Of a stretch of 14,336 nt of DNA, positions 1,528-14,197 are shown one piece after another; position 1 is the stretch's first letter; every line of letters starts with the position of its first letter. The notes beneath the pieces are model-generated. The model was not told where the DNA came from. It ran no database searches and saw only the letters and a program-made list of their open reading frames with translations. A program made the position numbers and the translations under genes. This DNA comes from a virus, in UHGV virus genome UHGV-0226239, one strand, 5' to 3'.

Positions 1528-2673
1528 GTGGCAAATGATATCTTACATTTAGTTCTTGATTCGAATGTTCTTCATGAAGAAGGTTTAAATTCGAATGATA
1601 TGAAGTTATTGAAAAAATATACCGACAAAGGTTTGATTAGAATTCATTTACCTTCACTTGTGGCTAAGGAGTTTGTAACACGAAAATCAAATAATTTAAT
1701 TGATGGTCTGGAGAAATCAAAACAGTCTTTGGATTCTGTTGAGAGAGATGCTAGAGGAATAAGTGAAGAGTTATTGGAATGTTTTGATGAACTAAAGAAA
1801 AAAATCATCAATGCAAAAAATGACATTGGGAATAAACCACAGGAATGTTTTGACCGTTGGGTGCAGGACTTTAAAGTTTCTATTGTTGACACAATACCTG
1901 ACTCTGTAAATGAAGTTTTTAACGATTACTTTTTAGGTAAAGGTGTCTTCAGAAAACCAAAGGCTAGGGAAGATATACCTGATGCTTTTATTTGCGTAAC
2001 GATAATTAATTTGCTATCTGAGTTTGGCAGTATTGTTGTAGTAAATAAAGATAAAGCTTTTCGTAAACATTTGTCTGAGTATGATAAAATACAGGTGCTT
2101 CAGAGTCTGCGTGAAGTCTTTTCTTTAAAAGGTATAGATTTATTAGAAGATGAGTCAATGTTGGATTTAATCCATTCTGCTGAGTTTGTCTCTGCACTTA
2201 GCCAGTATCTACGACAGCGCCCAGATGCATTTGAGTATGTGTATTTACATGAGGATGAAATATCAAAAATAGCATTAATTGGTCAAAGGATATATGGCGC
2301 TAGTATAGAAGTAGAAAATTATAACGATATTGCTAATGCAAGTATTTCTGATGCTAGAAGTATTGATGAGCATACCTATTCGGCTTTGCTTAGTTTTGAT
2401 ATGAATGTAAATATAAATTATATAACTGATTATGGCACATTTCTCGATATAGAAAGAACACATGGTAGAAGACCAGAGATGGAAAGTATGAATGGTGACG
2501 GTATTTGTGATGTGTCTGAAAATGCTTTAACAAAGTTTTATGGTGATTTGACCGTCAAATTCAAAAAAAACAGAGAAGAGATTGACAAAAGTGATATTGT
2601 TAGATTTCTCCTTGATGAGGATATATGTGTTCAGTTTGAGATAAAAAACATTGAAATAATTGAAATGTTATAA
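1528..2673 (+). CDS. AT-rich cargo gene: 381-aa protein with N-terminal PIN-like nuclease motifs and a C-terminal domain of unknown function; candidate single-gene anti-phage/abortive-infection effector
   Basis: GTG start at 1528 preceded by AGGGAG with 8-nt spacing. About 30% GC against about 58% in flanking phage genes. Motifs D11 (ILHLVLDSNVL), E48 (PSLVAKEF), D152 (DIPDAFICVTI) and D175 (VVVNKDKAF) fit the four conserved acidic positions of PIN domains, with an insertion of about 55 aa between the second and third. Followed by a hairpin terminator. Confidence 0.8.
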   Translation: MANDILHLVLDSNVLHEEGLNSNDMKLLKKYTDKGLIRIHLPSLVAKEFVTRKSNNLIDGLEKSKQSLDSVERDARGISEELLECFDELKKKIINAKNDIGNKPQECFDRWVQDFKVSIVDTIPDSVNEVFNDYFLGKGVFRKPKAREDIPDAFICVTIINLLSEFGSIVVVNKDKAFRKHLSEYDKIQVLQSLREVFSLKGIDLLEDESMLDLIHSAEFVSALSQYLRQRPDAFEYVYLHEDEISKIALIGQRIYGASIEVENYNDIANASISDARSIDEHTYSALLSFDMNVNINYITDYGTFLDIERTHGRRPEMESMNGDGICDVSENALTKFYGDLTVKFKKNREEIDKSDIVRFLLDEDICVQFEIKNIEIIEML

Positions 2674-2676
2674 AAT

Positions 2677-2705
2677 CGGGGGGCTTTGCCCCCATGACCT
2701 TTTAA
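2677..2705. terminator. Bidirectional intrinsic terminator shared by the convergent cargo gene (+) and portal gene Q (-)
   Basis: GGGGGC-TTT-GCCCCC stem-loop (2679-2693), flanked by a T-run on the plus strand (2700-2703) and by GATTTTAT on the minus strand. Confidence 0.6.
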
Positions 2706-2712
2706 CTGATCT

Positions 2713-3741
2713 TTAAAACGTATATTTTTCGAATCTGATCGTTTTTCCCACAAGCCAGTCGTTAATTTCTTCTAAACGTTTTTGTAAGGGAATTAATTCA
2801 TTCCGAACAAATACCCGACTAGCCTTCTCCACATCCCCAAATCCCCCGACATTATTTGGCATAATTCCCATCATCTGCGGCGGCACGCGGTGTGCCGCCA
2901 TCATGTCATCGCGACTAACATTTTTGATATTCAAAAACTCATCCTTTGCCGCGACTTCAGACAACGGGATGATCTGAAGCCCGTCCTTTTTGCCGTTCGG
3001 CGAGTACATAAACAGGTTACGGAAGTTGCCAGGTCCTTTGGCGCTTTTCATCGCATTACGGAGGTTGTTCACGTCCTCCTGGTTCTGCGCGGCATCGGTC
3101 ATGTACATGATGAAGCCAGCATGACTGCCGTTTATGTAATACTTTCGACGGAACAGCGTGGCGGACTCATTGAGCAGGGCGGACGGAATAGCAGAAAGAT
3201 AGCCGGGCAGGCCATAGATCTCCTGATTTATGTCCGGTTCCATCAGATGGAAAATGCTGCCTTTCGTGAACTGATACGGTTGCGTGGTCATGCCGTATTG
3301 CACAAACCAGTAGGTATCCAGGTCTAATCCACGTCGGGTGTATTTTGCCAGCGCAGGCTCAAGAGCGATAACTTCACCGAATCGGTTCGTGCGTTTCTCC
3401 AGGTAGGCGTTACCAAATACCAGATAGTCCTGCACAAAACGTGAAAAAGCCTGCTGGCTGAGCAGCGGGTGAGGGATGTAGGTACTGGTCAGAATGTTGC
3501 ATTTCACCGCAATTGGTGAACTGTGATGCACGGCGGCGCGGAAGGTGCGCGCCAGTCCGTCAAAGCTTACTGGCGGCTCATACCAGCGATCTGTCTGTAC
3601 GCATTCCACATAGTCCAGCAGTTCTCGGCGGTCCAGAACAGGAACGGGATCGCCGAAGCTGAATGCTTCGGCTGTAGTTTGACTTTTAAGCTGGATCTGT
3701 TTCGTCGCCGCAGCGCGGTTCTTCTTACTCTTTCCCATCAA
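2713..3741 (-). CDS. Q: Portal (capsid portal) protein, P2 gpQ-like, 342 aa
   Basis: Size and position match P2 Q (divergent from O, downstream of P on the minus strand); the start ATG overlaps the P stop (ATGA-type coupling). Confidence 0.9.
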   Translation of the reverse strand: MMGKSKKNRAAATKQIQLKSQTTAEAFSFGDPVPVLDRRELLDYVECVQTDRWYEPPVSFDGLARTFRAAVHHSSPIAVKCNILTSTYIPHPLLSQQAFSRFVQDYLVFGNAYLEKRTNRFGEVIALEPALAKYTRRGLDLDTYWFVQYGMTTQPYQFTKGSIFHLMEPDINQEIYGLPGYLSAIPSALLNESATLFRRKYYINGSHAGFIMYMTDAAQNQEDVNNLRNAMKSAKGPGNFRNLFMYSPNGKKDGLQIIPLSEVAAKDEFLNIKNVSRDDMMAAHRVPPQMMGIMPNNVGGFGDVEKASRVFVRNELIPLQKRLEEINDWLVGKTIRFEKYTF

Positions 3742-5504
3742 AAAATCTCCACAATATTGCTGGTATTGGCGGACTCGCCTTGCAGCGGTTCGTTAAACAG
3801 TGCGTGCATCGTTGCCCAGGCCAGATCCGCATGGCTGGCTTCTTCGCTGCGGCTGGCTTCATAGGTCGGGCGGTTGCCACTGGCGGTGGTGGAGCGACGG
3901 ATTGCCATAAAGGACTGCGCTATGTCGGTGTGTCCGGCGTCAAACTCCAGACGGCGGTGGCTGATAATGTCGTAGGCCTTGAGTACCAGGGCGTTTTTAA
4001 CGTTGGGGTTGTAGACAAACTCCCGGACGGCAGGAAAGAATGCTTTCACGTTCTCGTAAACCCCGTGGCCGACGCCAGTTGAGTCGATGCCGATGTATGT
4101 CACGTTGTACTGTTCGGTCAGTTTTTTGATGGCGTCAGCCTGGGCGCGGAAGTCCATCCCGCGCCACTGGTGACGCTCAAGAATGCGGAACTTACCGCCC
4201 GGCACGGCTGGCGGTGCCACCACCACGCACCCGGCGCTGTCGCCGTTCTGCGTACCTTTTGCCGGGTCATAACCGATCCACACCTCGCGCCAGCCAAACG
4301 GGCGCAGCGCCAGTGCATGAAAGTCGGTCCAGACTTCCCAGCTGTCCACCATGCACGCCTGCAGCTCGCTGAGCGGGAACACGGACGCGAGATCGTCCAC
4401 AAACTCGCACATCAGCAGGTTCTGGTATTCGTCCGGGCTGTACTCCATGCGCAACTGGTCAAGGTCGAACAGGTTGCAGCCGCCGCGCACCGCATCTTCC
4501 ACGGTGACTATCTGGCGGTACTGCCCGTCTGCGCACAGCAGGCCGGGGGCCAGATTGCGGTGGGACAGGTCGATGTCCACCTTATCGGCTTTGTTGCGCC
4601 CTCGGTTGAACAGCGCACCGGACCAGAACGGATAAGCACTGTGTGTCAGGCTGGATGGCGTGGAAAAATAGGTTTGTCGCCATTTTTTGTGAATAGCCAT
4701 ACCGGAAGCCACTTTGCGCAGCTCCTGGAATTTCGGTATCCAGAAATATTCATCCAGATACAGGTTGCCGTGGTAACTCTGGGCCGTGCGGGCATTGGTG
4801 CCGAGGAAGTAAAGCGTGGCCCCGTTAGGAAGCACCATCGGATCGCCTTTCAGCTCCACCTCCACTTCTTTGGCGAAGTCGATGATGTACTGCTTAAAGA
4901 CGTGGGCCTGTGCCTTACTGGCGGAAAGGAAAATCTGGTTACGCCCGGTAAGCAGGGCGTCAATCAGGGCTTCACGGGCAAAGTAAAAGGTCGCGCCGAT
5001 CTGGCGTGACTTCAGCAGATTGCGGATGCGGTTGGTTTTTCCGGCTTCCCACCAGTGGCGCTGGTAGTTGAACATGGAGGAATGGAAGATTTCTTCCAGT
5101 TTCTCAATCTGTTCATCGGTGAAAACATTCTTTTCCGGCTGACGGCGCGGGCCCTTATTGCGGTTGGCGACGTTAGGGTTTAAGTCAGCTTCGTTGCCGC
5201 CATTGTTAAACTTGCCGATCCGCGCGTGGCGCTCCGACTGGCGCGCCAGCAGGTCAATCTCTTTGAAATCTTTCCCTTCTTTGTGCTCCTTCATGATGAG
5301 CTGGCAGTAGCGTGCGGCGGTGGTGAGCTGCATCTGATCCAGCGGCCCATAGTCACCCCACTTGTCGCGTTTTTTCCAGCTGTGAACGGTTGCAACTTTC
5401 TCGCCCAGCATTTCAGCTATGCGGGCTACGCGGTATCCCTGAAAGTACAGCAGCATGGCCTGCCGACGGGGATCGAGATCTGCGGGTGTCAGTGTGGTGT
5501 TCAT
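3738..5504 (-). CDS. P: Terminase large (ATPase) subunit, P2 gpP-like, 588 aa
   Basis: Size and synteny match P2 gpP (about 590 aa), immediately upstream of Q on the minus strand and divergent from O. Confidence 0.9.
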   Translation of the reverse strand: MNTTLTPADLDPRRQAMLLYFQGYRVARIAEMLGEKVATVHSWKKRDKWGDYGPLDQMQLTTAARYCQLIMKEHKEGKDFKEIDLLARQSERHARIGKFNNGGNEADLNPNVANRNKGPRRQPEKNVFTDEQIEKLEEIFHSSMFNYQRHWWEAGKTNRIRNLLKSRQIGATFYFAREALIDALLTGRNQIFLSASKAQAHVFKQYIIDFAKEVEVELKGDPMVLPNGATLYFLGTNARTAQSYHGNLYLDEYFWIPKFQELRKVASGMAIHKKWRQTYFSTPSSLTHSAYPFWSGALFNRGRNKADKVDIDLSHRNLAPGLLCADGQYRQIVTVEDAVRGGCNLFDLDQLRMEYSPDEYQNLLMCEFVDDLASVFPLSELQACMVDSWEVWTDFHALALRPFGWREVWIGYDPAKGTQNGDSAGCVVVAPPAVPGGKFRILERHQWRGMDFRAQADAIKKLTEQYNVTYIGIDSTGVGHGVYENVKAFFPAVREFVYNPNVKNALVLKAYDIISHRRLEFDAGHTDIAQSFMAIRRSTTASGNRPTYEASRSEEASHADLAWATMHALFNEPLQGESANTSNIVEIF

Positions 5505-5646
5505 GGCACAAACCTACAGCCTTGAATGAAGGCTTTCCCCGCCTGTGGTTTGTGTGGTTGTCGGTACAAATACCGCGCATTGTTTCACTGCCCCCATCAC
5601 CGCAACCATAAGGCTCCAGTAAGTTTTTTCTAACGGAGCACGGCTC
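5505..5646. promoter_or_regulatory. Divergent late promoter region (P_P / P_O) with an Ogr/Delta-type activator site, TGT-N12-ACA at 5551-5568
   Basis: TGTgtggttgtcggtACA read directly; the dyad centre is about 55 bp upstream of a plausible rightward start about 30 nt before the O start codon. P2-family late promoters are known to need such a dyad centred near -55. Confidence 0.45.
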
Positions 5647-6480
5647 ATGACAGTGAAAGCAAAGCGTTTTCGCATCGGGGTGGAAGGTGCCACCACCGAC
5701 GGACGCGAAATCCAGCGTGAATGGCTGGAACAGATGGCAGCCAGCTACAACCCGGCGGTGTACACCGCGCTGATTAACCTTGAGCACATCAAGTCTTATC
5801 TGCCGGACAGCACCTTTAACCGCTACGGCAAGGTGACGGCGCTGTTTGCTGAAGAAATCACGGAAGGTCCGCTGGCGGGCAAGATGGCGCTGTATGCCGA
5901 CGTTGAGCCAACGGAATCCCTGGTGGAACTGGTGAAAAAAGGCCAGAAATTATTCACCTCTATGGAAGTCAGCCCGAAGTTCGCTGATACGGGCAAAGCC
6001 TACCTGGTCGGGCTGGCTGCCACTGATGATCCTGCCAGTCTGGGTACGGAAATGCTGACATTCAGCGCCAGTGCAGCCCATAACCCGCTGGCAAACCGCA
6101 AGCAGAATCCTGCCAATCTCTTTACCGCCGCAGAGGAAACGGTGATCGAACTGGAAGAAATCCAGGAGGACAAGCCGTCCCTGTTTGCCCGCGTCACGGC
6201 GCTGTTCACCAAAAAAGAGCAGTCCGACGATGCCCGGTTCTCTGATGTGCATAAGGCCGTGGAGCTGGTCGCCACTGAGCAGCAAAACCTGAGCGCACGC
6301 ACCGAAAAATCCCTGTCTGAGCAGGAAGAACGCCTGTCTGAGCTGGAGACAGCCCTGCAGTCACAGCTGACCGCCTTTAACGAACTGGTGGACAAGCTGA
6401 GCCATGAAGACAGCCGCCAGGACTACCGCCAGCGTGCAACGGGCGGTAACGCCCCCGCTGACACTCTGACCAATTGCTGA
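5647..6480 (+). CDS. O: Capsid scaffolding protein, P2 gpO-like, 277 aa
   Basis: Position (first gene of the rightward head operon) and size match P2 gpO; Ala/Glu-rich C-terminal half is typical of scaffold proteins. Confidence 0.88.
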   Translation: MTVKAKRFRIGVEGATTDGREIQREWLEQMAASYNPAVYTALINLEHIKSYLPDSTFNRYGKVTALFAEEITEGPLAGKMALYADVEPTESLVELVKKGQKLFTSMEVSPKFADTGKAYLVGLAATDDPASLGTEMLTFSASAAHNPLANRKQNPANLFTAAEETVIELEEIQEDKPSLFARVTALFTKKEQSDDARFSDVHKAVELVATEQQNLSARTEKSLSEQEERLSELETALQSQLTAFNELVDKLSHEDSRQDYRQRATGGNAPADTLTNC

Positions 6481-9191: not shown

Positions 9192-9684
9192 ACGCTGCCT
9201 TGTCGGGACCGTGCTGGCTATTGCTGCCACGCTGCCGGGTTTTCAGCAGCTTCACACCTCCGTGGAGGGGCTGAAACTGATTGCCGATTACGAAGGCTGT
9301 CGTCTGCAGCCGTATCAGTGCAGCGCGGGTGTCTGGACCGACGGCATTGGTAATACGTCGGGCGTCATTCCCGGCAAAACCATTACGGAGCGACAGGCAG
9401 CGGAAGGGCTGATCTCCAACGTGCTGCGTGTGGAGCGGGCGCTGGAAAGGTGTGTGAAGCAACAGCCGCCGCAGAAGGTGTATGACGCGGTGGTGTCGTT
9501 TGCCTTCAACGTGGGAACGGGCAATGCCTGCAGTTCCACGCTGGTGAAATTACTCAATCAGCGGCGCTGGGCGGATGCGTGCCGACAGTTGCCGCGCTGG
9601 GTTTATGTAAAAGGTGTGTTTAATCAGGGGCTGGATAACCGCCGTGCGCGGGAGATGGCCTGGTGTTTACAGGGAGCAAACTGA
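9172..9684 (+). CDS. Endolysin, GH24 T4-lysozyme-like, with an N-terminal SAR (signal-anchor-release) segment, 170 aa
   Basis: Weakly hydrophobic Gly/Ala-rich N-terminus (CLVGTVLAIAATLPGF); catalytic motif E-x8-C-x5-T in YEGCRLQPYQCSAGVWT; FAFNVGTGN block typical of phage lysozymes; GGGAGG RBS upstream. Confidence 0.85.
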   Translation: MNPSIVKRCLVGTVLAIAATLPGFQQLHTSVEGLKLIADYEGCRLQPYQCSAGVWTDGIGNTSGVIPGKTITERQAAEGLISNVLRVERALERCVKQQPPQKVYDAVVSFAFNVGTGNACSSTLVKLLNQRRWADACRQLPRWVYVKGVFNQGLDNRRAREMAWCLQGAN

Positions 9685-9685
9685 A

Positions 9686-10063
9686 ATGAAAAAGAAATTA
9701 ATCAGCGGACTGTTTCTGATGTTATGGATGGCGCTGTTAATCGCAGCAATGGTGTATCCGCAGGGGATTTTTCCGGTACTGGCAGCATCTGGTGTCTGGG
9801 TAGCCTGTCTGCTGACATGGGTGGTAATTCCGGTAGCACTGGCTGCGTTAATTAAGAATGGCTCGCTCTGGCAGGAGTTGAGGGCATCTTTGCTGAAGAC
9901 AATTACCCGAAAAGAAAACGTATTTATCAGCTGGGTGATGCGATTGCTGATTGTCGTAAGTCTCGCCTGGACGGGGTGGGCTATTACCCTGGTCTTTTAT
10001 CTGCTGACCGTTATTGCCTTCTGGATCACCCGTAATCAGATGGCGCAACAGGTAGCAGCATGA
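9686..10063 (+). CDS. lysA: LysA-like membrane protein (lysis timing), 125 aa from ATG 9686
   Basis: AGGGAG RBS 9 nt upstream of ATG 9686; about four predicted TMDs; position after the endolysin as in P2. The ORF-track start at 9614 overlaps the endolysin and is less likely. Confidence 0.7.
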   Translation: MKKKLISGLFLMLWMALLIAAMVYPQGIFPVLAASGVWVACLLTWVVIPVALAALIKNGSLWQELRASLLKTITRKENVFISWVMRLLIVVSLAWTGWAITLVFYLLTVIAFWITRNQMAQQVAA

Positions 10064-10488
10064 ACCGGTTGCTGCTGGTTGTGCTGGCGTTATTACTGGC
10101 GGCGCTGGGCTGGCAGACGTGGCGGCTGGCTGATGCCAGCCAGACCATCAGCACGCAGGCAGACGAGCTGCAGCGCCAAAGCCAGGCACTGGCAAAGAGC
10201 AACAGCCAGCTTATCAGCCTGTCCATTCTGACTGAAACCAATAACCGGGAGCAGGCGCGGCTCTATGCCGACGCAGAACAGACCAGCGCACTGCTGAGAC
10301 AACGACAACGCCGGATGGAGGAACTGAAACGTGAGAACGAGGATTTACGCCGCTGGGCTGATACTCCTTTGCCTGCTGACATTATCCGGCTGCGGGAACG
10401 TCCGGCACTCACCGGAGGTGCAGCTTACCGTCAGTGGTTGTCCGCGAGTGACGCCGTGTCGGCTGGATCAGGCAACGCCGCGCACTAA
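10060..10488 (+). CDS. lysB: LysB, Rz-like inner-membrane spanin (i-spanin), 142 aa
   Basis: N-terminal TMD (LLLVVLALLLAALGW) followed by a charged, Gln/Arg-rich helical periplasmic domain; ATG overlaps the lysA stop. Confidence 0.75.
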   Translation: MNRLLLVVLALLLAALGWQTWRLADASQTISTQADELQRQSQALAKSNSQLISLSILTETNNREQARLYADAEQTSALLRQRQRRMEELKRENEDLRRWADTPLPADIIRLRERPALTGGAAYRQWLSASDAVSAGSGNAAH

Positions 10489-10621: not shown

Positions 10622-11015
10622 AGCGGTGCCTTATGTCCGCAATAACCCGGACAAACTGCATCTGTTTGTGGATAACGGTTCGCTGGTTGCCACGGGGGCC
10701 AGCTCTATGTCGTGGGAGTACCGTTACACCCTGAACGCGGTGATTGAGGATTTCAGCGGCGACCAGAATCTGCTGATGGCCCCGGTTTTGCTGTGGCTGA
10801 GGGATAACCAGCCCGATGCCATCAATAACCCGGCGTTACGGAAAAAACTATTCACCTTTGAGGTGGATATTCTGCGCAACGATGTCTGTGATATCAGCCT
10901 GAACCTGCAACTGACAGAGCGTGTGCTGGTCAGCACTGACGGCAGTGTGTCAAGTGTTGAAGCGGTAGCGGAACCCGATGAACCAGAAGAAATGTGGACG
11001 GTGAAACGTGGCTGA
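10584..11015 (+). CDS. R: Tail completion protein, P2 gpR-like, about 143 aa from GTG 10584
   Basis: N-terminus VNKPQSLRHAL...LHLFVDNGS resembles the gpR N-terminus; AGGAGC lies 7 nt before GTG 10584. The ORF-track ATG at 10563 is an alternative start. Confidence 0.8.
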   Translation: MNKPQSLRHALNKAVPYVRNNPDKLHLFVDNGSLVATGASSMSWEYRYTLNAVIEDFSGDQNLLMAPVLLWLRDNQPDAINNPALRKKLFTFEVDILRNDVCDISLNLQLTERVLVSTDGSVSSVEAVAEPDEPEEMWTVKRG

Positions 11016-11454
11016 ATTACAGAAGGTGGACGACTGGCTGAGTGCTTTGCTGGCGAATCTGGAGCCAGCCGCAAGAAGCCGCATGATGCGCCAGCTGGCG
11101 CAGGAACTGCGCCGGACACAGCAGCAGAATATCAGGATGCAGCGCAACCCTGACGGCAGCAGCTATGAACCGCGACGGGTAACAGCACGCAGTAAAAAAG
11201 GCCGTATCAAACGTCAGATGTTTGCAAAGCTGCGCACCACAAAATACCTGAAAACTGCCGCCAGCGCGGATTCTGCCAGCGTACAGTTTGAAGGTAAGGT
11301 ACAGCGCATTGCCCGCGTTCACCATTACGGCCTGCGTGATCGCGTCAGTCGAAAAGGACCGGAAGTACGATACGCAGAGCGTCGTTTACTTGGAATGAAT
11401 GAATATGCAGAAAATATAGTAAAAGATATATTGTTTCAGTTGTTAATAAAATGA
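11008..11454 (+). CDS. S: Tail completion protein, P2 gpS-like, 148 aa; the last ~20 codons are AT-rich and probably chimeric
   Basis: GTG start overlapping the R stop; motifs LRRTQQQNIRMQRNPDGS and QRIARVHHYGLRDRVSRKGPEVRY resemble gpS; base composition changes abruptly near 11388. Confidence 0.85.
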   Translation: MAELQKVDDWLSALLANLEPAARSRMMRQLAQELRRTQQQNIRMQRNPDGSSYEPRRVTARSKKGRIKRQMFAKLRTTKYLKTAASADSASVQFEGKVQRIARVHHYGLRDRVSRKGPEVRYAERRLLGMNEYAENIVKDILFQLLIK

Positions 11455-11618
11455 TGTGACTAAACCACATCATTTATTGCTGACTGAAAACCACGTCTTT
11501 TGGGCGTGGTCATCAACTGGTTTTGGCTCTACATTATTGCCTTTGAATTTAAATGTTACAAAACTGGCAGTGGATTCTTTTTAAAGGTTTTGGTGCGCCC
11601 TTTTAGGATGTAATCAAT

Positions 11619-11645
11619 ACCGCCTTCTTAGAAGGCGGGTTTTTA
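11619..11645. terminator. Intrinsic terminator hairpin between convergent S (+) and the HNH gene (-)
   Basis: CCGCCTTC-TTA-GAAGGCGG stem-loop followed by GTTTTTACT on the plus strand; lies 3' of both convergent genes. Confidence 0.55.
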
Positions 11646-11648
11646 CTA

Positions 11649-12302
11649 CTAATCCATAAATGGTTCAAGAATTGGACCTAATTCAGCATCTTCCATAATG
11701 ATCCATCTGCAAAATGATGAAAAAGCTGCGTCTCTTTTTATCATCATCTTCATTTTTTCAATTAAGTATTTTTTTTGTTCTGTTGGAGTATCTTCTTCAT
11801 AATATTCATTAATATTTTTAATTAGTTTTTGGGTTGTTTTCACTACTTGAGTACGAAGTGCCGCAGAAGTTAATTTTTTACTCATGGTATGATCGCTATT
11901 ATATACTTTCTCAAGTAACTCTGCGGTCGTCTGCGTTTCAATATCATTAAATAGTGCTGTTACTGTTATTTTTTTTGCTTTATAAGAATATCCTGGGAGT
12001 AATTTTACTCGATCCCATACCTTTTCTTTACAGCAATCAAGAATGTTGTCATATTTTGATAGTTTTATATTGTTACATCTGGAACATGATAGATATAAAT
12101 TATCCCAATCAAAAGCTCTTTCCACATCATCACCCTTGGGTTTAAAATGTTCAATGTTTATATCCAAAGGGTTCTTTGTTTCGCAAATGTAACATTTTCC
12201 ATAAAAGCATTCCTGTAGTGCTTCATGTACATCAGCACCATCATAACGTGCTTTCTTGGAAAGAGACTTTGGTGCAGGATATGTTCTATTAACCTTGAAC
12301 AT
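11649..12302 (-). CDS. HNH endonuclease-domain protein, 217 aa (Septu PtuB-like)
   Basis: HNH/His-Me finger signature CYICE...IEHFKPKG...NLYLSCSRCNN (two CxxC pairs bracketing His and Asn); AGGAG RBS 5 nt upstream; the ATG overlaps the stop of the upstream ATPase gene (TAATG); about 30% GC. Confidence 0.8.
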   Translation of the reverse strand: MFKVNRTYPAPKSLSKKARYDGADVHEALQECFYGKCYICETKNPLDINIEHFKPKGDDVERAFDWDNLYLSCSRCNNIKLSKYDNILDCCKEKVWDRVKLLPGYSYKAKKITVTALFNDIETQTTAELLEKVYNSDHTMSKKLTSAALRTQVVKTTQKLIKNINEYYEEDTPTEQKKYLIEKMKMMIKRDAAFSSFCRWIIMEDAELGPILEPFMD

Positions 12303-13531
12303 TATTTCTCCTGAGAATTTGCTTTTTTATATTTTAGTATCTGCATTTTTGCATAGTCAATAAATGCACTTGCATGGATGTCCATGGATTCATCTAAAGG
12401 TGCTAAGGATTGTATTATGTTATTGGCAGTTTCAATATTGTTGTTGTTAATATTGTCAATAATATCTTGAAGTTGTTCTAACTTATCTGAAAGAACTTTA
12501 GATATTGGACTTACTCCGAATAATTCTTGAAGGATGATACCATAAGAATATGAAGACACATCACTAATTTTCGCGTTGGTCGATAGATCATAAATGATGG
12601 CATTTGTGACGGATGTAACAACAAACGGAGAATGTGTAGTGACAATGAATTGTACTTTAGGAAAGGAGTGACTAAAAAATCTTAATATTTGCTTTTGCAA
12701 AGAAACATGTAAATGCGCATCTATTTCATCAATAAAAATAATACCTTCGATACTGTCAGGTGTTAAACCCCACATTTCTACTCTCATTATTAAGTCAGCG
12801 TAAATTCTCAATATTGATGAGTGGCCAGAAGATAATGTTTGAAAAGTAAACTTATCTTTACCATCTTGATTGAGATAAAATTTTCCTTCGTTACTATCAA
12901 ACGTTAGTAAGAGGTTTTTATCTTCAAAAAGTTCCTGCATATCAGTTTCAATTTTATCAAACCATTTCTGTATCCGCTGAGCTTTCTTATGGTCATTATC
13001 AAAAGAAATTGCATAGCTCTGAGCTGTTTTTAAACTAACCAAATAATTCTCAAAGAAATCATCACCATCTACTTCATTAGAAAAATGTGATTTTTCATTA
13101 ATTAAAGCCGATAGCCTAGGAACGGCAATTGGCGAGGTAATTGATGCTTCACGTAGAGCTTTGTGAAATCTCAATAGTGAACGTGTTTCACCTTCTTTTT
13201 CTTTTGTTTCTATTCTAATGGCTTTTAATTGTTCAATTTTTAATTCAATGTTTTTTATTTCTTCAGAATAAAAGTTGTAATTAACGTCGTCACGCCCGCC
13301 GTTATTTAAGTGATATTTGTAGGACTCTAACGTATTGTATAAATTATTGATGTTATGATCATTAGGTCTATCTATCTTATTTTTAAGGAAATCATAAATA
13401 GATCTAATAAAACTAGTTTTTCCACACCCGTTACCACCAGTTATTATGAGATTTTTACCGTCAAGCAATAAGTTTGCTGTCTTATTAGTGTATGGAATTG
13501 GAGCATAAATTTCATTTATTGATGTAAGCAT
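12302..13531 (-). CDS. ABC-type / AAA_21-like ATPase, about 409 aa from ATG 13531 (Septu PtuA-like)
   Basis: Walker A (GGNGCGKTS), signature-like LSSGHSS, Walker B (IIFIDEIDAHLH) and H-loop (VTTHSP) motifs. The ORF-track start at 13630 would overlap gene V and its promoter; the internal ATG at 13531 with an AAGGGAA RBS is preferred. Confidence 0.8.
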   Translation of the reverse strand: MLTSINEIYAPIPYTNKTANLLLDGKNLIITGGNGCGKTSFIRSIYDFLKNKIDRPNDHNINNLYNTLESYKYHLNNGGRDDVNYNFYSEEIKNIELKIEQLKAIRIETKEKEGETRSLLRFHKALREASITSPIAVPRLSALINEKSHFSNEVDGDDFFENYLVSLKTAQSYAISFDNDHKKAQRIQKWFDKIETDMQELFEDKNLLLTFDSNEGKFYLNQDGKDKFTFQTLSSGHSSILRIYADLIMRVEMWGLTPDSIEGIIFIDEIDAHLHVSLQKQILRFFSHSFPKVQFIVTTHSPFVVTSVTNAIIYDLSTNAKISDVSSYSYGIILQELFGVSPISKVLSDKLEQLQDIIDNINNNNIETANNIIQSLAPLDESMDIHASAFIDYAKMQILKYKKANSQEK

Positions 13532-13618
13532 ATATTCCCTTGTGTCGTTAACAGTACAACTACAACACTGATAATAATACAACTTATTGAGATACAGTTC
13601 ACCTTTAAGGGGGGAAGG
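13532..13618. promoter_or_regulatory. Predicted V late promoter (P_V) with TGT-N12-ACA at 13541-13558, overlapping the divergent promoter/5' UTR of the ATPase-HNH operon
   Basis: TGTgtcgttaacagtACA read directly; its centre is about 55 bp upstream of a plausible start just before the V RBS (AAGGGGGGAAGG). A TATTAT -10-like hexamer on the minus strand (13574-13579) is a candidate promoter element for the divergent cargo operon. Confidence 0.4.
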
Positions 13619-14197
13619 GTGAACGCACAATTAACCGAAATCATGCGCCTTATCACCAACCTGATCCGCACTGGGGTAGTCACCGAAGTGGACAGGGAAA
13701 ACTGGCTTTGCCGAGTGAAAACGGGCGAGCTTGAAACTAACTGGATCAGTTGGCTGACGCTGCGTGCAGGAAATGCCCGGACATGGTGGCGACCATCGGA
13801 AGGTGAGCAGGTGGTGCTGCTGAGTCTGGGGGGCAATCTGGAAACGGCCTTTGCGCTGCCCGCTGTCTATTCGAATCAGTTTGCGCCACCGTCGACGTCG
13901 GCGGACGCCTGTGTGACAGAATATCCTGACGGTGGCTGGTTTGAATACGAACCTGCCACCGGGCGCTGGTATGTCAGGGGCATCAAATCCATGGTCATTG
14001 AGGCTGCCGATAACATCACCCTGAAAACCAGTGAGTTTGTGCTGGAGGCTGAGTGCACGCGTATTAACAGCGAAGTGGTGGTCAATGGTGGCGTTACTCA
14101 GGGCGGCGGAGCGATGAGTTCTAACGGGATCGTGGTTGATGCGCATCAGCATACTGGCGTCCTGAAAGGCGGCGATACAACCGGAGGCCCGGTATGA
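13619..14197 (+). CDS. V: Baseplate assembly/spike protein, P2 gpV-like, 192 aa
   Basis: GTG start with a strong RBS; motifs LTLRAGNARTWW.PSEGEQVVLL...GGN.ETAF.LP and a C-terminal SNG...H.HTG block resemble gpV. Confidence 0.85.
   Translation: MNAQLTEIMRLITNLIRTGVVTEVDRENWLCRVKTGELETNWISWLTLRAGNARTWWRPSEGEQVVLLSLGGNLETAFALPAVYSNQFAPPSTSADACVTEYPDGGWFEYEPATGRWYVRGIKSMVIEAADNITLKTSEFVLEAECTRINSEVVVNGGVTQGGGAMSSNGIVVDAHQHTGVLKGGDTTGGPV

Follow-up and report, generated by a model that had tools for sequence, protein, structure and literature searches.

The late promoter of gene V as part of an exchangeable Septu cassette at the S-V locus of a P2-like prophage, and its probable overlap with the cargo promoter

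Ogr/Delta/B-dependent late promoters have been described in P2, P4, 186 and PSP3, with the activator dyad lying near position -55. The TGT-N12-ACA consensus of the dyad and the Ogr dependence of the late promoters have been summarised previously (PMC3931495). In P2 (NC_001895), the promoter of the baseplate gene V (P_V) stands beside an accessory gene, orf30 (complement 9439-10224), a non-essential and AT-rich minus-strand gene between S and V. A site annotated as 'activator binding site; activation of pV promoter' (10239-10266) is located 14 bp from the orf30 start, and its centre is 55.5 bp upstream of the annotated V transcription start (10308). One activator site serves both pP and pO in P2, at 55-56 bp from each annotated start, and a terminator is annotated after S. 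Here we analysed the corresponding locus in a stretch of 14,336 nucleotides of the UHGV virus genome UHGV-0226239 (hereafter, the window), in which the gene pair ptuA-ptuB of a predicted Septu defence system lies between S and V, and we report on the 87-bp spacer that separates ptuA from V.

The comparison with the P_V region of P2, which an earlier sequence-only reading of this stretch had proposed, found the accessory gene, the activator site and V in the same order and in the same compact layout. The terminator is at the equivalent place, the dyad is 10 bp from the cargo start codon, and the cargo-V spacer measures 87 bp compared with 83 bp in P2. On the other hand, the cargo of P2 is Orf30, whose function is unassigned, whereas the window carries a two-gene Septu system. 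The V mRNA of P2 is annotated from the A of the ATG and is thus leaderless, while the dyad in the window lies 14 bp further from a GTG start codon that is preceded by a Shine-Dalgarno sequence, and the pV dyad of P2 is not a perfect TGT-N12-ACA. Compared with the Ogr/Delta/B-dependent late promoters in general, the locus shares the dyad motif, the V-W-J-I operon, the lack of a -35 element and an ogr/Delta-like gene, but its promoter sequence is specific to the cassette, and its start site and activator dependence are predicted. The compact arrangement of cargo, activator site and V is annotated in P2 and is not new, and the window is a real but largely ordinary example of it. Within this layout, 13532-13618 forms the regulatory core of a cassette that is exchanged as a block at the variable S-V locus (P2 'orf30'). 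We consider that ptuAB is most likely transcribed from a weak promoter inside the P_V core of this cassette, with a probability of roughly 0.55. The elements of the spacer and its two flanking genes, with the second late-promoter dyad of the window, are as follows.

5551-5568, no strand assigned: activator dyad of the divergent P and O late promoters, the only other intergenic TGT-N12-ACA match.
12302-13531, minus strand: ptuA, ABC/AAA_21-type ATPase gene of Septu (PADLOC PtuA PDLC00268, 1.5e-138, residues 2-404; Pfam AAA_21/AAA_15).
About 13536-13541, minus strand: Shine-Dalgarno motif of ptuA (AAGGGA), read from the sequence.
13541-13558, no strand assigned: Ogr/Delta-type operator of P_V, TGT-N12-ACA, TGTGTCGTTAACAGTACA, from a pattern scan (13540-13559 in the extended form TTGT-N12-ACAA).
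13574-13579, minus strand: candidate -10 (TATTAT) of the ptuAB promoter, ATAATA on the plus strand, the top minus-strand match to a position weight matrix (PWM; score 8.9), with a predicted start near 13567.
13593-13598, plus strand: predicted -10 of P_V (TACAGT), the form TAnAnT being kept at +42.5 to +48.5 from the dyad centre in all Septu cassettes.
13597-13602, minus strand: candidate weak -35 (GTGAAC) of the ptuAB promoter from the PWM scan, overlapping the P_V -10 and separated from TATTAT by a 17-bp spacer.
13605-13607, plus strand: predicted transcription start of the V operon from the geometry (dyad centre +55.5, 7-9 nt past the -10).
13609-13618, plus strand: Shine-Dalgarno region of V, GGGGGGAAGG, with a duplex energy of -11.7 kcal/mol against the anti-Shine-Dalgarno sequence.
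13619-14197, plus strand: V, baseplate spike gene with a GTG start (Pfam Phage_base_V and gpV Apex motif; identical start in PGAP).

The start codon of ptuA appears as CAT on the plus strand at 13529-13531, that is, an ATG read on the minus strand from 13531, and 10 bp separate it from the dyad. The sequence-only reading had placed the dyad at this position and distance from the ATPase gene and had described it as overlapping the ribosome-binding region; both points hold, as AAGGGA abuts the dyad and 1-2 nt are shared. The number of bare TGT-N12-ACA matches in the window is not enriched (6 matches vs 3.8 ± 1.9 in shuffled sequences). Two of the six stand at positions expected for late promoters, one in the P/O intergenic region (5551-5568) and one upstream of V, and the P/O dyad TTGTGTGGTTGTCGGTACAA (5550-5569) agrees with the V dyad TTGTGTCGTTAACAGTACAA at 15 of 20 bases. 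The locus was then viewed across a comparison set of 80 viral contigs with a V at least 96% identical, together with several E. coli loci, which comprises an empty form, where S and V are 68 bp apart, and about 13 cargo cassettes unrelated to one another. A TTGT-N12-ACAA of its own is present in every S-V cassette (about 14 unrelated sequences), though the surrounding DNA cannot be aligned. Across these sequences, the position of the dyad relative to V stays inside a span of 4 nt. A chance dyad was rejected despite the unenriched overall count, the placement and the conservation across cassettes being decisive.

An ogr/Delta-like gene is not found in the window but is known from a prophage of E. 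coli ET210 with an S-V region 99.9% identical, where an ogr/Delta-like zinc finger family protein is annotated beside gene D. The late operon downstream of the dyad comprises V and W in the window, and J, I and tail genes in the ET210 prophage. Because the dyad resembles that of P/O, corresponds to the P2 annotation, is accompanied by an ogr/Delta-like gene in ET210 and recurs in every cassette, we regard 13541-13558, on sequence grounds, as a genuine P2-family late-promoter operator for V, in agreement with the assignment made earlier. A leftward use of this symmetric operator, as at pP and pO, was rejected, as the -55.5 position would be 13494 inside ptuA and no -10 is found there. At the P/O region (5493-5647), a dyad centred on 5559.5 would put the leftward start at 5504, on the A of the P start codon, and the terminase gene P may be leaderless in this phage; in P2, by contrast, the annotated P start site (3016) is 23 nt upstream of the start of the coding sequence (2993).

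P_V falls within the borders of the cassette. Megablast similarity to other phages starts at 13620. The binned identity to relatives with an empty site or other cargo is 30-47% in 13561-13620, which is the random level, and about 100% from 13621. At the left edge, identity to relatives falls inside S from more than 90% to about 45% after approximately 11370-11398. The breakpoints are at S codon ~125 and V codon 1, giving an extent of about 11385-13619, and the cassette contains the last ~20 S codons, a bidirectional terminator, the antisense ptuA-ptuB pair and its own copy of P_V. This copy cannot be aligned with P_V in relatives that have a 96-98% identical V but an empty site or other cargo, and the rebuilt Septu-type P_V accompanies PtuAB into phages with a divergent V. 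As the resemblance to other phages sets in exactly at V codon 1, we take P_V to be cassette DNA and not a surviving resident promoter.

The sequence-only reading had held that the V promoter came through the insertion without the change of a base, and this part did not stand. An insertion of Septu just upstream of a pre-existing P_V that was preserved base for base would account for an intact operator and a plausible, intact -10 that stand in the right order. It is nevertheless very improbable, since no alignable similarity to the P_V of relatives remains before V codon 1, and the same rebuilt promoter travels with PtuAB. This P_V is also of a different design: the dyad centre is at -69.5 from the V start codon and not at -55.5, a Shine-Dalgarno sequence is present, and V starts with GTG. 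In the empty form (L002 1060-1077; prophages such as that of CFT073), the P_V operator TGTATCAGCACTGATACA is a perfect 8-bp inverted repeat located 6 bp past the S stop codon, and no terminator is annotated between S and V in the L002 record.

A profile scan of the contigs for PtuA gave one locus, and further Septu lineages were obtained by protein search and contig look-ups. Four lineages of Septu cassette were found, all in the S-V locus of P2-like prophages: the window type, L088/L090/L091 (PtuA 68-69% identical to that of the window), L099 from Nissabacter (66%) and L100/L101 (63%). In all four, exactly 10 bp lie between the dyad and the ATG of ptuA, and a GAGG/GGGA motif is kept at the position of the ptuA Shine-Dalgarno sequence in each of them. 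The hexamer at the predicted P_V -10 reads TACAGT, TATAGT, TAAAAT or TAAAGT depending on the lineage. The position of the P_V -35, 17 bp upstream of TACAGT, holds GATAAT, which is no match to a -35 element, as expected for an activator-dependent promoter. A V start about 55 bp downstream of the dyad, as predicted in the sequence-only reading, would fit the conserved TAnAnT, which stands in the right register.

The distance from the dyad to V divides the cassettes into two kinds. The 13 non-Septu forms are the empty form and 12 cargo cassettes (L002, L003, L004, L008, L027, L032, L046, L058, L066, L068, L071, L081 and L086), and in these the dyad centre is 54.5-57.5 bp upstream of the ATG of V. 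Neither they nor P2 have a Shine-Dalgarno sequence (duplex energy at least -4.1 kcal/mol), and in 12 of 14 non-Septu types, P2 included, A(-11) and T(-7) stand exactly at their -10 positions when the A of the V ATG is counted as +1. It suggests that the V mRNA of the non-Septu cassettes is leaderless, matching the P2 annotation. In the four Septu lineages, the dyad centre is 68.5-72.5 bp from the V start, 13-17 bp further than in other cassettes, and V has a Shine-Dalgarno sequence (-6 to -11.7 kcal/mol) and begins with GTG or ATG. A consistent reading is that the V mRNA of the Septu cassettes is leadered, with a predicted start about 55 bp from the operator (~13605-13607 in the window) and a leader of 13-17 nt. 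Leaderless translation is generally considered to need AUG, and for this reason the GTG start of V in the window fits a leadered mRNA.

As only 87 bp separate ptuA and V, the cargo promoter has to share the DNA of P_V or be located within V. The sequence-only reading had drawn a similar conclusion, to which this geometry leaves no other outcome, and had pointed to TATTAT on the minus strand at 13574-13579 as a candidate -10. The hexamer is present and is the best cargo -10 candidate. A -10 at this offset (+24.5 to +30.5 from the dyad centre) is the top candidate of the window, L088 and L099 and the second of L090 and L100, so that it holds first or second rank at the same place in four lineages. 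The hexamers there are TATTAT, TATATT, TATAAA and TATAAA, and the -35 equivalents are ATGAAC in L088/L090, TTGACT in L099 and TGGATA in L100. The AT-rich block bearing TATTAT is missing from the empty-site P_V. We find TATTAT at 13579-13574 plausible as the -10 of ptuAB. An extended -10 (TGn) is absent from the candidate cargo promoter, and the body of literature searched contained nothing on the orf30 promoter or on transcriptomes of P2 lysogens.

The statistical evidence leaves some room for a promoter elsewhere. The best score for a cargo promoter, 8.9, is not above that of shuffled sequences (median 8.0, 95th percentile 11.2), and a consensus scan of the minus strand at 13532-13800 passed no site, the TATTAT candidate included. 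One explanation is that the ptuAB promoter lies outside the 87-bp spacer, antisense inside V (or W), that a long leader crosses all of P_V, and that TATTAT is incidental AT-rich sequence. The lack of significance of the spacer candidate speaks for this, as do weak minus-strand matches in the first 40 bp of V, such as GTGATA-17-TAGTTG, with scores of 4.4-5.6. However, these scores are below that of the spacer candidate, and no site up to 13800 passes the consensus scan. The 5' sequence of V differs in L100, yet the cassette layout persists, and an antisense promoter in V would meet P_V transcription head-on. We regard this explanation as unlikely, although it is the strongest of the alternatives. 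We also considered whether the conserved 5' end of V might hold an antisense promoter shared by all kinds of cargo, and the scans gave no convincing site.

It is less probable still that the AT-rich block at 13570-13583 belongs to the plus-strand P_V, as a spacer or bending element, as an UP-like element or as the -10 of a sigma-70-like promoter TTAACA-16-GATAAT (13548-13575), with Septu expressed at a low and unprogrammed level. The consensus scan does report TTAACA-16-GATAAT on the plus strand, with 10 of 12 matches, directed toward V and with its -35 inside the operator, and GATAA is common to the window and the L088/L090 lineages. But the -35 TTAACA is not conserved (TCACTG in L088), L088/L090 have GATAAA without the final T, and L099 and L100 have TGAATT and TGTATT. 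The operator would be at -33 of such a promoter, unlike the -55 geometry annotated for three P2 promoters, and V would be constitutively expressed in the lysogen. Promoter-like matches in the region number 14 vs 11 ± 3.5 in shuffles, and TTAACA-16-GATAAT is probably due to chance.

We thus return to a ptuAB promoter nested within P_V as the preferred explanation. P_V would consist of the Ogr/Delta-type operator at 13541-13558, no usable -35, the -10 TACAGT at 13593-13598 and a start at about 13605, and the V mRNA would have a 14-nt leader with a Shine-Dalgarno sequence ahead of the GTG. The ptuAB genes would be transcribed leftward by the sigma-70 RNA polymerase from a -35 at 13602-13597 and a -10 at 13579-13574, with a start near 13567 and a leader of about 36 nt that would contain the operator at +9 to +26. 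The two starts would be about 38 bp apart and would point away from each other, the cargo -35 lying over the P_V -10 and the cargo -10 in the -31 to -26 region of P_V. The polymerase footprints at both promoters would cover the same DNA, which would lead to mutual exclusion. In a lysogen without Ogr, the cargo promoter alone would fire, and during late lytic growth the Ogr-recruited polymerase at P_V would outcompete it. The sequence comparisons establish the anatomy of the region, what the operator and the cargo are, and where the cassette ends; we infer both start sites, the cargo promoter and any transcriptional interference from the arrangement described above.

Several points weigh against this explanation. 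Besides the score of the best site given above, the TATTAT hexamer alone is not significant in DNA of 30% GC, the candidate -35 is poor (3/6), and the -10 of two lineages (TATAAA) is without the highly conserved final T. The four Septu lineages are homologous, so that their positional agreement is not independent evidence, and the conserved AT-rich block could serve P_V instead. The base at dyad +55.5 is a T, and the nearest purine is at 13607. In some cassettes the cargo start is 40-91 bp from the dyad, and their promoter may be left of the operator; the interleaving of cargo promoter and P_V at the S-V locus may therefore be common but not universal. Finally, Ogr is a small and weakly binding protein, which makes a roadblock effect doubtful.

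Homologues of PtuA with about 57% identity were found outside P2-like phages (L096-L098 from Klebsiella and L102-L103 from Yersinia; gene 2501-3727), directly downstream of a tyrosine integrase gene. The islands that carry them also hold shufflon and PilS genes, and TraD in Yersinia. These homologues have their own upstream region of 130-190 bp without a dyad, from which we conclude that the compact 5' region of ptuA is specific to the P2-borne clade. In the S-V loci of P2-like phages, only the Septu clade with at least 63% PtuA identity was found.

The same layout is found with other cargo. Thirteen of 14 cargo types at the S-V locus, P2 orf30 and Septu included, are on the minus strand and antisense to V. 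The cargo start codons stand left of the dyad at distances of up to 91 bp; eight of them are within 25 bp of it or reach it (by first-ATG call). As most of the cargo is antisense with starts near the dyad, the interleaved layout is the norm at the S-V locus. The cargo in other cassettes of this locus includes PDC-S59, an ApeA-like protein, AbiU/AIPR, an OLD/AriAB-like ATPase, a TIR protein and several proteins without a family match (among the coordinates, L058 2627-3916, L081 2141-3892, L086 2162-3862, L027 2048-3844 and L004 1169-1984).

The orf30 locus has been listed among three variable regions of P2-like phages (PMC3091744). Two hotspot studies analysed the gpA-gpQ (PMC9122126) and Z/fun (bioRxiv 10.1101/2022.05.12.491691) loci and not S-V. 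In both the gpA-gpQ old/tin and the Z/fun hotspots, as at S-V, unrelated defence genes replace one another at a fixed site, and the S-V locus appears to be a third such hotspot in P2-like phages. It differs from the other two in being inside the late morphogenetic region and in that its cassettes include an essential late promoter. The cargo also resembles the prophage morons that lie antisense to late genes (discussed in PMC7067206) in its foreign composition (26-35% vs 55% GC), its own terminator and its direction against late transcription. A classic moron, however, has an autonomous promoter, whereas here there is no room outside the late promoter, which is itself part of the exchanged block. 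A wider and more tentative view, which we hold possible but doubtful, is that the S-V locus serves as a defence hotspot at which whole regulatory units replace one another, each with an S C-terminus, a terminator, an antisense cargo and a private Ogr-dependent P_V. V would be leaderless in most of them and rebuilt to a leadered form in the Septu cassettes, and the nested promoters would act as a switch, with defence on in the lysogen and off in the phage's own late lytic development.

The stretch as a whole is the late region of a P2-like prophage, with Q and P on the minus strand, O, N, M, L, X, the lysis genes, R and S on the plus strand, and then V and W. The block between the end of S (11454) and the start of V (13619) has a GC content of 26-35%, compared with about 55% in the flanking DNA, and is occupied by two overlapping minus-strand genes, ptuA and ptuB. 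The remaining features of the block are as follows.

11008-11454, plus strand: S, tail-completion gene (Pfam Phage_tail_S, 1.3e-40), of which the last ~20 codons (from ~11385) are cassette-specific.
11620-11638, both strands: bidirectional hairpin terminator between S and ptuB, from a terminator scan (8-bp stem, 6 G-C pairs, T-rich tail clearest on the plus strand).
11649-12302, minus strand: ptuB, HNH nuclease gene of Septu (PADLOC PtuB PDLC00321, 5e-100; Pfam HNH, 1.2e-5).

Both proteins match full-length PADLOC profiles and are without unusual traits, and the cargo is, by these profile matches, a type I Septu system (PtuA and PtuB) with a predicted defence function. The gene ptuB is directly downstream of ptuA, and the two overlap by 1 nt at the ptuB start. 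The start of ptuA and the GTG start of V are the same in the PGAP calls for four near-identical E. coli loci. A longer open reading frame of ptuA from TTG 13630 (442 aa) was rejected, because the PADLOC profile aligns from residue 2 of the product that starts at ATG 13531, and because this ATG is used by PGAP and by all homologues.

The terminator at 11620-11638 would stop the O-operon transcript coming from the left and the ptuAB transcript coming from the right. The spacer between the S stop and the ptuB stop (195 bp, 11452-11648) has two extra small hairpins, at ~11453-11471 over the S stop codon and at ~11490-11510, both of which precede this terminator. A search of 11300-13800 for known RNA elements gave nothing beyond a sub-threshold CRISPR-DR33 match (E = 0.77), which was judged to be chance. 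The Septu cassette is present in 13 of 1031 E. coli genomes that carry the window-type S/V. In four clinical E. coli genomes with this cassette, such as E. coli M7424 (L092 950-1602), ptuB is annotated as two shorter open reading frames, an HNH gene of 336 nt and a hypothetical gene of 237 nt; this split annotation suggests a disrupted Septu nuclease.

Two by-products of the analysis are modest: the P_V sequence travels with the cassette, and V appears to switch from a leaderless to a leadered mRNA in the Septu cassettes. The annotation of the V start as leaderless or leadered depends, then, on the cassette that is present, and the cloning of Septu-type cargo "with native promoter" must include part of the V promoter. 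If ptuAB is indeed transcribed from within P_V, this would be a simple route to express a nuclease-based defence in lysogeny and to silence it in the phage's own late development, and it would mean that an essential late promoter can be carried by accessory cargo and exchanged with it. Otherwise, the main result is that the layout of P2 orf30 extends to Septu and other defence genes.

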